A DNA stretch of 64,000 nt from positions 41,075-105,074 of the IMG/VR virus record IMGVR_UViG_3300029922_000031. One strand, 5' to 3'. Shown here piece by piece: positions 47,326-49,990 of this stretch. The stretch comes from a virus. The notes under the pieces are model-generated. The model was not told the origin of the DNA. It was given only the letters and a program-made list of their open reading frames with translations, and did not search any database. Made by a program: the position numbers and the translations under genes. Every line of letters starts with the position of its first letter. Within the stretch, counting starts at the first letter, position 1.

Positions 47326-49047
47326 TCAACGGGAAACGCCCGCGATCTCGATCTTGCGAACGGGATACTCGAGATCGATGCAATAGCCGACCGCGTCCGC
47401 GGCGTGTTCGATGTTCATCGTCTTGTCGACCTCACGGGTGCCGGGCTTGTAGATGACCTGCTCGAAAGCCGTGATTGTGTGCTTGCAGCCCTGGTCAACC
47501 CGCATCCGGATCGTGCCGTCGGCCGTCTTGAACATACGGTTGGTGGCGTTGATACGATCGGAGACCTTGGGAGACTTGCGGCGGTATTTCAGCCGAATGA
47601 AGCCGGCATCGCGCATGATGTCGAGATCCGATTCGCCGCGAGCATGACCGCGCTGCTGGCCCGCCGGGTCAGGATAGATCGTGGTCTGCTTGAGGTGACG
47701 GAAGAACTTCTCGCCCAGCTTATCTGAGGCTTCCTGGGTGTTCGAACCGAATAGCACGACCTCATCGACGATCCAAACCTCGCCGTTGAGTTGAGGCTGC
47801 ATGATGATCGAGGTCATCGGGTCGATGTTGAAGTCCTGCCCTATCCAGATCGGTAGCTTCGGGTTGAATAGATAGTTGCCGACGTGGAGCTTGCGGTCGA
47901 AGGCGTGATAGACGCGACCGGACATTGTCTCGAAGGAGTTGAAGTTGTTGGCGCCGCTCGCCAAAACGTAACTGTGGTCATGACTATCCACGAGCATGTT
48001 CATGACCGAAACAGGCTCTGCTCTAAAAGATCGATTAACGACCTCGAGGCTGAGAAGACCGAGTTCTGGCAGCCAACGCTCTTTCAGCCATTCTGAAAAG
48101 TGCGGAAAAGAATGACCCGCGGTTGAACTTCGACCAGCGTCGATATCCCTCAATAGGCGATGCGCCGCGCCGCGCGTCAGCCCAATCGCGGCGCCGATCT
48201 TTTCATAGGGGTAGCCATCGGCACGCATGTCGAGCGCCGTCTCACGTCGAAACTCGGCCTTAACCCGATATGCCTTTAGATATTTCGACCATTGCCAGCC
48301 GAGAAGCTCCTTCGCATCGCAATAGGCGAAGCCAATCTTATCGAAGAAGACGACGATGCCGGCTGTGCCGTCGTTCACCCGCAACCAATACGTCTTGTAG
48401 TCGTCGCCAGTCGCCGAGACCGACATCGTCACCCCAAGATCGAGCGCCATCGTCTGAAGTTGGTCGAAAAACGCCTGACCATCGAAGCCGGCCGCCTTGC
48501 ACATGTTAAGAGCTGGTAGTCGCGGCATTCGAGACTTACCGCTAATGTCGTGCGCCGGCGCTGTCCCTTCCGCGCCGAATAAAGCGGCAAGATAGGCACG
48601 CTTCACCGCAACGTCGCCATTGATGATCCAGTCCGGCACTAGAAAACTCTGTCGAACCTTAGCGCCGATCGGCACGCCAAAGTCGGCGAGATAGCGACAG
48701 TCGCTCTCGCCGAGCTGAATCTGATAGCCGTCTTTCAAATGCGCCGCAGATGTCTTCTTTGAACAAACCGTGACGCCGTCACAAAGACCAAGCGATTGAA
48801 GATCGCTCAAAATCGCCTTTAGATCATCTCGCTCATTGCTGTAGAATGCACCCTGCATTCTAGGGTAGAGCGAAATTGAGCCATCTCGCTTTGTGTATTT
48901 AGAATGAGAAAGCACGATCGTGCCGTCGCCGGTCATATAACCAACAAGCGCAGCAAGCTTCTCGTCGCCGGTGCGCGGCGCGTAGAGTGTAGGCGAAATC
49001 TCGATACGCTCAATCTCATCAAGCGCGATCTTATGAGGCGTCAGCAC
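47326..49047 (-). CDS. terL: terL C-part: LAGLIDADG endonuclease + HTH + intein C-terminus + terminase nuclease domain
   Basis: LAALVGYMTGDG and AYLAALFGAEG LAGLIDADG motifs; intein blocks F/G VMNMLVDSHDHSYVLASGANNFN|S; then SFETMSGRVY, IGQDFNIDP, YPDPAG, EHAADAVGY. Possible GTG start at 49047. Confidence 0.85.
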   Translation of the reverse strand: MLTPHKIALDEIERIEISPTLYAPRTGDEKLAALVGYMTGDGTIVLSHSKYTKRDGSISLYPRMQGAFYSNERDDLKAILSDLQSLGLCDGVTVCSKKTSAAHLKDGYQIQLGESDCRYLADFGVPIGAKVRQSFLVPDWIINGDVAVKRAYLAALFGAEGTAPAHDISGKSRMPRLPALNMCKAAGFDGQAFFDQLQTMALDLGVTMSVSATGDDYKTYWLRVNDGTAGIVVFFDKIGFAYCDAKELLGWQWSKYLKAYRVKAEFRRETALDMRADGYPYEKIGAAIGLTRGAAHRLLRDIDAGRSSTAGHSFPHFSEWLKERWLPELGLLSLEVVNRSFRAEPVSVMNMLVDSHDHSYVLASGANNFNSFETMSGRVYHAFDRKLHVGNYLFNPKLPIWIGQDFNIDPMTSIIMQPQLNGEVWIVDEVVLFGSNTQEASDKLGEKFFRHLKQTTIYPDPAGQQRGHARGESDLDIMRDAGFIRLKYRRKSPKVSDRINATNRMFKTADGTIRMRVDQGCKHTITAFEQVIYKPGTREVDKTMNIEHAADAVGYCIDLEYPVRKIEIAGVSR

Positions 49048-49270
49048 GGTGAACCTTGAATTTATGATGTGCGCTGGCTGAGATGATCTCGCCAGTCTCC
49101 AGTATAACGTCACAAATTATTTTGCGCCCCGTTTCACCGATACGCAATACGCTTGTTGGAATTCTTTCGCCGTCGGGTGTAATATGGATTAGTTCGTCAC
49201 CAAAACGAATATCCCGAATAGCCTTAACTTCACCATTCCACATGCGAACTTGCGTCTCAAGCAGATGACA
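47938..49270 (-). mobile_element. Intein with homing endonuclease inserted at EFEA|SFET of terL, interrupted by a +1 frame change
   Basis: Cys1 codon at 49270-49268 (CHLLETQVRMWNG...IRDIRFGD, block B ASAHHKFKV); terminal Asn at 47940-47938; span 1333 nt = 3n+1; visibly lower GC than the flanks. Confidence 0.88.
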
Positions 49271-49990
49271 CGCCTCGAACTCCTGACGGAACGACTTTTC
49301 ATCCATATCGCCGCGGGCCGCTTCGATTTCTTCGGGCGGGATGAACGGCGAGGTGATCGTCGGGAACTGCCAGCTTCTCCAGGGATTGACCCGCCAGATC
49401 TTCTCCTTGCGATCGAAATAGTTGTCGCCGCGCTGGCCGAGCATGTAGACGTCGTAGAGCCAGTTGAAGCTCTTCGGGGTGCCGATGATGATCGCGTCGC
49501 CGCCGGTCGAGGCCAGCGTCGCGCGCAGCACCAAATACCAGGTGTCGGGCCGCACGTCCTGCGCCTCGTCGATCACGACCAGGTCGAGAGCGGTGCCGCG
49601 GAGCGTATCCGGCTTGTCGGCGCCCTTGCACTCGATGATCGTCCCATTGGCGAGGAAGATCGTCATCAGGGTTTCGTTGATCTTGACGATCAGCCCGCGC
49701 GGGATCGTATCGATCAGCTCGCGCCACATAATGCCGCGCGCCATTCGATAGGTCGGCGCGACGTACCAGATGAGTTTCTTGGGCTTGCGGGCAGCGATCA
49801 GAATCGCATTGCGGGCACAGGCGGTCTTTCCCCATCGGCGGCCGGCGACAATGACGCGGAAGCGCCGACGATCATTTAGAACCGTAGCCTGGCCGGAATG
49901 CACGAATAGACGCTTGGCGTCAGCGCGCAACGCCCCGCGAAACGCGCGCCAAGCGACCTTTTCAGCCTTCATTGCAGCCGACAGAGCCAT
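49031..49990 (-). CDS. terL: terL N-part: terminase ATPase domain + intein N-terminus
   Basis: AGRRWGKT, WYVAPTY, LRG..LD.VVIDEAQD, IGTPK, FRQEFEA, then intein blocks A-B and stop. Confidence 0.9.
   Translation of the reverse strand: MALSAAMKAEKVAWRAFRGALRADAKRLFVHSGQATVLNDRRRFRVIVAGRRWGKTACARNAILIAARKPKKLIWYVAPTYRMARGIMWRELIDTIPRGLIVKINETLMTIFLANGTIIECKGADKPDTLRGTALDLVVIDEAQDVRPDTWYLVLRATLASTGGDAIIIGTPKSFNWLYDVYMLGQRGDNYFDRKEKIWRVNPWRSWQFPTITSPFIPPEEIEAARGDMDEKSFRQEFEACHLLETQVRMWNGEVKAIRDIRFGDELIHITPDGERIPTSVLRIGETGRKIICDVILETGEIISASAHHKFKVHRADAS

Follow-up and report, generated by a model that had tools for sequence, protein, structure and literature searches.

Three forms of inteins, full-length, mini and split, are distinguished in reviews and primary papers. 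Natural split inteins are described as being without an endonuclease domain (PMC2677866, PMC3620165, PMC10189870); being treated as endonuclease-free, they are regarded as fixed in their hosts and as dead ends of evolution. The "fractured genes" of phages were proposed as intermediates in how split inteins evolved (Dassa et al., 2009; PMC2677866). The endonucleases of these genes are of the GIY-YIG or Vsr-like types, which according to the authors are not known inside inteins, and LAGLIDADG or HNH genes were merely suggested to be able to fracture genes likewise (PMC2677866). In the literature searched for this study, which covered few papers from subscription journals, no description of a natural split intein with an in-frame LAGLIDADG nuclease in its C-terminal fragment was found. 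Here we describe such an arrangement in a stretch of 64,000 nucleotides (nt), hereafter the window, which comprises bases 41075–105074 of the IMG/VR virus record IMGVR_UViG_3300029922_000031, a 105-kb viral contig with a CheckV estimate of 93% completeness. On the minus strand of the window, terL, the gene for the large terminase subunit (TerL), is split at its QEFEA|SFET site by a 1333-nt LAGLIDADG intein that is itself broken in two overlapping open reading frames (ORFs). From sequence comparisons, we consider it probable that this is a naturally split TerL intein that retains its endonuclease and may well still be mobile, that its halves are produced from two coupled genes and joined by trans-splicing, and that its split site, between block B and strand N4, is new for natural inteins.

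The two exteins, like all features given below, are on the minus strand. They are colinear with TerL of the intein-less Rhizobium phage RHEph10 and meet at residues 221|222 of the latter (..FRQEFEA|SFES..), with neither gap nor overlap. The N-extein (49271..49990; ORF1 residues 1–240) is the ATPase domain. It matched Pfam Terminase_6N (1.9e-08) and PHROG 2, terminase large subunit (1.7e-32), and was 64% identical to residues 7–221 of RHEph10 TerL. The C-extein (47329..47937; stop codon at 47328–47326) is the nuclease domain of 203 amino acid residues (aa), starting with SFETMSGR. It matched PHROG 10250, terminase large subunit (1.9e-41), was 66% identical to residues 222–423 of RHEph10 TerL and matched the nuclease domain of D6E TerL with a root-mean-square deviation of 2.7 Å. 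Overall, the exteins resemble the TerLs of RHEph10 and of SSU5- and nickie-like phages (~110 kb), from all of which the insert is absent, and the QEFEA|SFE motif is uninterrupted in ~200 intein-less relatives. No second terL was found in the 93%-complete genome.

ORF1 (49990..49034) encodes 319 aa, of which 240 aa are the N-extein and 79 aa belong to the intein (CHLLETQV ... SASAHHKFKVHRADAS). This N-terminal intein fragment (IntN; 49034..49270) contains block A (Cys1, CHLLET), N2 and block B (SAHH, the SxxH motif) followed by the 6-residue tail HRADAS, so that ORF1 stops six residues past the block B motif SASAHHKFKV. The start codon of ORF2, a GTG at 49045..49047 in the +1 frame, has its last base 12 nt upstream of the TAA stop codon of ORF1 (49031..49033), and the two ORFs overlap by 17 nt. 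A Shine-Dalgarno (SD)-like AAGG (49054..49057) lies 6 nt upstream of this GTG, within the Lys-Val codons of block B (AAG GTT). From the GTG to its end at 47326, ORF2 encodes 370 aa of the intein and the 203-aa C-extein. The C-terminal intein fragment (IntC; 47938..49047) contains, as identified with alignments, an AlphaFold2 (AF2) model and Foldseek, the N4 strands (KIALDEIERIEI), a LAGLIDADG homing endonuclease domain with two motifs (48313..48969; motif 1 ..VGYMTGDG with Asp41 and motif 2 ..ALFGAEG with Glu160), a helix-turn-helix (HTH)-like segment, and blocks F and G that end with NNFN. The last two, block F (..VDSHDHSYVLASG) and block G (ANNFN), form the C-terminal splicing lobe (47938..48057), which extends to the splice junction. 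The entire intein thus spans 49270..47938, or 1333 nt (3n+1). A longer ORF2 was considered and rejected: the +1 frame is open from 49113, and the 22 codons that a start there would add merely re-read conserved ORF1 sequence in the +1 frame, and stops close them in the homologous loci L003 and L089. An earlier note, made from the sequence of the window alone, had reported the interruption of terL at FRQEFEA|SFET, an ORF1 with the ATPase and blocks A–B ending at 49031, an overlapping +1 ORF2 with a GTG at 49047 behind AAGGT that carries a two-motif LAGLIDADG nuclease, blocks F/G and the terminase nuclease domain, and an intein of 1333 nt with otherwise intact halves; our analysis bears out this description in full.

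The residues needed for splicing and DNA cleavage are highly conserved. In 46 C-halves, the terminal Asn370, the block F residues Asp357, Ser359 and Tyr360, and Asp41 and Glu160 of the LAGLIDADG motifs were invariant, and Ser+1 and the block F His (His358) were conserved in at least 90%. In 8 N-halves, Cys1, the Thr of block A, and the Ser and His of block B were also invariant. The sequence and structural hallmarks of a class-1 intein were found, namely insertion at a conserved host site, colinear exteins, catalytic residues and, via the contiguous homolog P0050, the HINT fold. The match of the window to Pfam LAGLIDADG_3 scored 20.1 bits, just below the cut-off of 22.5, and this family is recorded for most of the homologs. 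Moreover, the endonuclease model of the window superposed on I-DmoI (TM score 0.68–0.75), PI-PfuI and TliVMA in Foldseek. Judged by its motifs and modeled fold, the two-motif, single-chain LAGLIDADG endonuclease is intact, and it is predicted to cleave DNA.

The break in the intein was found repeatedly. L006, an independent IMG/VR contig from a different metagenome, differed from the window at 5 of 4538 nt (99.89% identity), and 1481 nt including the junction were 100% identical. The exact ORF1 protein was found on 7 contigs and the exact ORF2 protein on 5 contigs (JGI and ENA), and a near-identical ORF2 protein was found in Logan/ENA. Searches with the intein part of ORF2 identified ~48 proteins of 560–584 aa with identities of 43–58%. 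All of them were called by gene callers from a position equivalent to the GTG of ORF2, with a Met a few residues before the conserved strand K-V-x-L-D-x-A-x-W-L-E-F-x-P, which is followed by LAALVGYMTGDG. Two of these C-halves were from isolate genomes, in prophages of Methylocaldum szegediense and Chelativorans composti. Only a handful of contiguous homologs, of 840–866 aa, were found. A full HMMER search of the library with ORF1 identified eight N-halves in at least six 50%-identity clusters, and a word-based search with the 78-aa IntN alone identified 2 proteins only. The N-halves all ended 0–6 residues past F[KR]V of block B, which gives IntNs of 72–79 aa. In P0061 and P0068, two further LAGLIDADG inteins of the same N-half polypeptide are contiguous and the QEFEA|S intein is split, and the break is therefore a property of this intein and not of poor assemblies. 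The intein part gave no tblastn match in 50,697 deposited phage genomes, a collection that thus lacks any cultured phage with this intein. Against PDB sequences, a profile of the intein part gave only weak HTH hits and matched no intein, and a profile search of genome contigs with an alignment of 3 intein sequences gave only distant inteins of archaea and the candidate phyla radiation. The earlier note had proposed to look for conservation of the frame break among intein alleles at the same terL site; our results showed that it is conserved in ~48 C-halves and 8 N-halves, with few contiguous alleles.

The position of the break was located with two contiguous relatives. In the mini-intein of L126, which is contiguous and of the same family, the ORF2 start has its homologous segment (K-V-A-I-E-D-A-K-V-V-E-R-F) in the splicing domain and not in the nuclease. 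The AF2 model of P0050, which was built from a 66-row alignment and had a predicted local distance difference test (pLDDT) score of 91, consists of TerL and a HINT/LAGLIDADG intein; its best Foldseek matches were TliVMA, PI-PfuI and PI-SceI, followed by I-DmoI and phage TerL domains. In this model, the block B strand (residues 281–284) is followed by a two-residue turn (KG, 285–286), two strands (287–290 and 296–299) and, from residue 309, the first LAGLIDADG helix. As both the mini-intein and the P0050 model place N4 in the splicing domain, the natural break maps, on the modeled structure, to the hairpin turn that links block B (N3) to N4, which is within the splicing domain and not at the boundary of the endonuclease. 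AF2 folding of the C-half of the window by itself, from a 46-row alignment, gave confident models of the endonuclease and of the TerL nuclease domain, and residues 349–378, which comprise blocks F/G and the junction, had pLDDT values below 50. The same region had values of 87–97 in the contiguous P0050. This fits with a splicing lobe that would need IntN to fold.

The DNA of the stop/start junction was read for five independent split loci, which are the window, L003, L088, L089 and L169 (the Methylocaldum prophage). In all five, AAGGT, formed by the block B Lys-Val codons AAG GTx, precedes an ATG or GTG in another frame by 6–9 nt, and the stop codon of ORF1 is 4–17 nt inside ORF2. The second Lys of block B is encoded by AAG in all five loci, and the preceding Lys by AAA in three of the four loci that have a Lys there (L169 has an Arg). 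The contiguous allele L004 has AAA ATT where the split loci have AAG GTx. The frame of ORF2 is offset by +1 in four loci and by −1 in L089, in which stop and start overlap as ATGA and the ORF2 frame is open for merely three codons upstream of the ATG. The codons at the stop differ in all five loci (TCA TAA G, GGC TAA G, GTC TGA A, GGA TAG T and GCA TGA C), and no slippery motif common to the five junctions was found. Moreover, the N-tails vary from 0 to 6 aa and the lengths of the C-leaders spread over ~11 aa across the homologs. Given the varying frame offset, the lack of a shared slippery site and the start codon behind an SD-like AAGG in every locus, the junctions most likely represent two translationally coupled genes, and a conserved programmed frameshift is unlikely.

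To trace the history of the split, an intein tree was built from 61 C-parts and an extein tree from 186 C-exteins (FastTree, 202 columns). In the intein tree, the split state was clustered; it requires 3 changes, and a single origin is compatible with the supported branches. The paths between split inteins were longer than 1 substitution per site, which suggests that the split is old. In the C-extein tree, the split-intein label was scattered, requiring 34 changes, at least 12 of which are forced by well-supported branches; this is near the mean of 42 after shuffling. The TerL of the window grouped, with 98% support, with three intein-less TerLs, to which it was 76–85% identical, and it was at most 66% identical to the intein-bearing TerLs. 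Given the scatter on the TerL tree and the intein-less closest relatives, the split element appears to be still mobile; its repeated gain by homing, stop/start junction included, and its repeated loss would be the simplest account of the trees. Frequent precise loss alone may also explain the scatter.

Besides trans-splicing of two separately translated halves, three explanations of this locus were considered. The earlier note had listed a lesion among its options, and it is true that the record is a metagenome-assembled contig and that a one-base indel would account for an intein length of 3n+1. However, an independent assembly with 5 differences elsewhere has the very same junction, exact proteins recur on contigs from different sources, and the same break position is found in ~50 diverged homologs whose ORFs are otherwise intact, including those of the prophages of isolate genomes. 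The depth of the split clade and the lack of a second terL also speak against a defective phage. Because the break is at the same position in the diverged homologs and its junction recurs in independent assemblies, a lesion or an assembly error is excluded; a decaying gene or artefact is effectively refuted by the conservation, and we regard it as barely credible. The other option of the earlier note was a programmed +1 frameshift. Ribosomal frameshifting or hopping at the stop codon of ORF1 would give a contiguous precursor that splices in cis, and the appearance of two ORFs would then reflect a recoding site. The same +1 shift would be required in four of the five loci, shifting at the stop codon would produce a linker exactly as long as that of the contiguous allele L004, and an SD-like element upstream of a stop codon resembles the site of prfB. 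The junctions, however, do not have the features of a prfB-type +1 frameshift: the codons that flank the stop are unlike in every locus and share no slippery motif, the AAGG is ~21 nt before the stop instead of 3 nt as in prfB, and L089 would require a −1 shift in a frame that is open only 3 codons before an ATG that overlaps the TGA. In addition, the N-tails and C-leaders vary in length as expected of free termini, and a start codon is kept in every locus. Recoding is thus highly unlikely as the explanation of the two ORFs, and the option favored in the earlier note, a split intein with its endonuclease in the C-half, is the one supported by the conserved break, the intact residues and the start codons of all five loci.

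It is also conceivable that two polypeptides are made and no splicing takes place, with the intein fragments serving as a non-covalent dimerization module for the ATPase and nuclease domains, or with the halves acting independently. Consistent with this, the insertion site falls between the two domains, and the penultimate residue of block G is Phe where the canonical residue is His. Phe in place of this His is a known variation among inteins. Against this explanation, Cys1, the His of block B, the Asp and His of block F, the terminal Asn and Ser+1 show little or no variation among the N- and C-halves at identities of 35–60%, which is not expected if the splicing chemistry were dispensable. 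Without splicing, moreover, the highly conserved QEFEA|SFE motif would stay disrupted by ~450 extra residues. We therefore find an unspliced, two-polypeptide terminase unlikely. Several points nevertheless weigh against a trans-spliced product of two coupled genes. In addition to the absence of the canonical His in block G, an IntN of 72–79 aa that ends right past block B represents a split position not yet shown to work in any natural intein. The junction was read in a sample of five split loci, and the argument from the frame offset depends on one −1 case. Since it is conserved Lys-Val codons that contain the AAGG, its role as an SD sequence may be coincidental in part; only about one quarter of the crude ORF starts in the window are preceded by SD-like motifs, and GTG, the start codon of ORF2, is a weaker one. 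Finally, the extein tree was made quickly with FastTree from 202 columns, and its sampling is uneven.

Taken together, we infer that ORF2 is initiated separately, that the fragments associate and splice, and that the endonuclease is active, as follows. The first gene would yield the ATPase domain fused to the 79-aa IntN with blocks A, N2 and B. The second, from the GTG at 49047, would yield the nuclease domain preceded by the 370-aa IntC, which comprises N4, the homing endonuclease, the HTH-like segment and blocks F/G. The two products would associate by completing the HINT fold, in which the hairpin is re-formed between the block B strand and the N4 strand. Trans-splicing would then produce a TerL of 443 aa that is colinear with those of the intein-less relatives, with the predicted junction peptide ..QEFEASFETMSGR, and would release the two-piece intein. 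The endonuclease of the latter could cut intein-less terL alleles during co-infection, and homing would copy the element together with its internal stop/start junction. With somewhat less confidence, we also favor the broader proposal that the homologs make up a large and old family of mobile split inteins, in which breakage of a full-length LAGLIDADG intein between block B and N4 created a new split site (IntN ~75 aa and IntC ~370 aa), and the element kept trans-splicing and homing and spread among phage terL genes as a two-ORF unit, intermediate between full-length inteins and the canonical endonuclease-free split inteins.

If this is correct, splitting of an intein can precede the loss of its endonuclease, and a split intein can stay mobile, each invasion "fracturing" an essential packaging gene of the recipient. 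The family would then represent the missing intermediate from full-length to canonical endonuclease-free split inteins, which bears on the origin of split inteins and the model of Dassa et al. (2009). For protein engineering, it would offer a naturally evolved block B/N4 split site and dozens of diverged, possibly orthogonal pairs. It also matters for annotation, as such terL genes are now called a "LAGLIDADG family homing endonuclease" (for instance P0008, by its NCBI name) plus a truncated terminase, and may be taken for pseudogenes or for evidence of an incomplete phage. The TerL C-halves of the prophages of M. szegediense (P0008/L169) and C. composti (P0016) are publicly named either "LAGLIDADG family homing endonuclease" or "hypothetical protein", which leaves the prophage terminase effectively unannotated.

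The gene order around the split terL is a DNA-binding, TerS-like protein, TerL part 1, TerL part 2 and portal. The ATG of ORF1 overlaps by one base (49990, minus strand) with the stop codon of the upstream gene, which encodes the 250-aa TerS-like protein (PHROG 867). Coupling by overlap, as at this TerS-like/TerL boundary, is the local style of the operon. Within IntC, the HTH-like segment between the nuclease core and block F (48139..48273) is helical in the AF2 model and, in profile searches, weakly matched Trp-repressor-like and invertase HTH chains (E 0.5–0.7). P0053, a partial homolog, is recorded with Pfam PF08281. The segment may be an added DNA-binding or recognition module of the endonuclease, an assignment that is weak.

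The TerL clade to which these genes belong is a hot spot of inteins (L088:762-3005; P0059, P0061, P0066, P0068, P0071, and P0075). At least four insertion sites were found, which are P-loop GK|C, FIG|TPK, QEFEA|S and EHA|xDA, with up to three inteins per gene and both mini and full-length forms at the P-loop site. In L003:760-3004 (IMGVR_UViG_3300035181_000217), a second LAGLIDADG intein is inserted in the same terL at FIG|TPK of the ATPase domain. It shows a +1 frame change just before its first LAGLIDADG motif, with a TTG 7 nt past a GAGG and 4 nt before a TAA. The allelic inteins of P0061 and P0068 are contiguous at this site, and the FIG|TPK break of L003 may thus be lineage-specific. If this break is real, TerL of the L003 phage would be built from three polypeptides. 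The mini-intein of L126:2029-3678 (ERZ1026898 NODE-30) is contiguous, contains no endonuclease and is inserted two residues upstream of the QEFEA|S site (QEF|C...NNYN|CASFES); Cys replaces the Glu of QEFEA as its +1 residue, an apparent shift of the insertion point. Finally, the intein of L010:687-1583 (IMGVR_UViG_3300002242_000651) is in the nuclease domain (..NLEHA|CFHGD...VVSSN|CDALGY), and its center is overlapped in another frame by a 143-aa ORF (1016-1444) rich in CxxC pairs. By analogy to previously reported inteins (bioRxiv 10.1101/2025.01.02.630785), this ORF may encode an out-of-frame zinc-finger or HNH-type nuclease.

Among the described systems, the contiguous LAGLIDADG inteins at the same terL site (L004, L170-173, P0050, P0052, and P0060) share the insertion site and domain order with the intein of the window and are 26–43% identical to it in local alignments. 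However, each is encoded by a single ORF, and the turn at which the window intein is broken is intact (KG, 285–286 of P0050). Three solved inteins with homing endonucleases, PI-PfuI (1DQ3), PI-SceI (1VDE) and TliVMA (7QSS), were matched by the AF2 model of P0050 with Foldseek E values of 1e-14 to 1e-16. The actinophage inteins whose endonuclease is encoded in a different frame or on the other strand (Gosselin, Arsenault and Gogarten; bioRxiv 10.1101/2025.01.02.630785) are also non-canonical in architecture and from phages, several of them in TerL, with evidence of ongoing transfer and with a frame change inside the intein region. Their splicing domain, however, is one ORF and only the nuclease is in the other frame or strand, whereas the intein of the window has a divided splicing domain and a nuclease that shares its frame with the C-terminal splicing blocks and the C-extein.

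Similar to the intein of the window, the fractured genes of Dassa et al. (2009) are phage genes, including one terminase, that are broken by an endonuclease-associated split intein, and their coding regions overlap or are coupled. In these genes, the endonuclease is a free-standing third gene between the halves (PMC2677866), whereas the window has two ORFs only, and its endonuclease is a LAGLIDADG domain of the classic intein type, read in one frame with IntC and the C-extein. As the C-half of the window begins with splicing-domain sequence that is homologous to the contiguous alleles, the split would have arisen by breakage of a full-length intein and not by invasion of a free-standing gene. 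The atypically split inteins AceL-TerL, GOS-TerL and PolB16 OarG are likewise split away from the endonuclease-insertion loop and have a long IntC, and several of them are in phage terminase genes from metagenomes. They are split past motif N1, with an IntN of 15–37 aa and an IntC of 104–168 aa that consists of the splicing domain without a nuclease (PMC10189870; a terminase IntC of 122 aa in PMC2677866).

The canonical split inteins, such as those of cyanobacterial DnaE and phage gp41-1, NrdJ-1 and IMPDH-1, resemble the intein of the window in that two ORFs are each fused to one extein of an essential DNA-handling enzyme, mostly in a phage context. They also share the class-1 catalytic residues, and assembly is expected to occur by completion of the HINT fold. 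Their IntN is ~100 aa (88–105 aa) and their IntC 33–54 aa, and they are broken at N4/C2, where endonucleases sit in other inteins, and contain no endonuclease (PMC2677866, PMC3620165, PMC10189870). In the window and its homologs, by contrast, IntN is 72–79 aa and IntC ~370 aa, the break is one strand earlier (block B/N3-N4), and a complete LAGLIDADG endonuclease is fused within IntC. Thus, the retained endonuclease and the split site are departures from the described members of the group, and not from the definition of a split intein.

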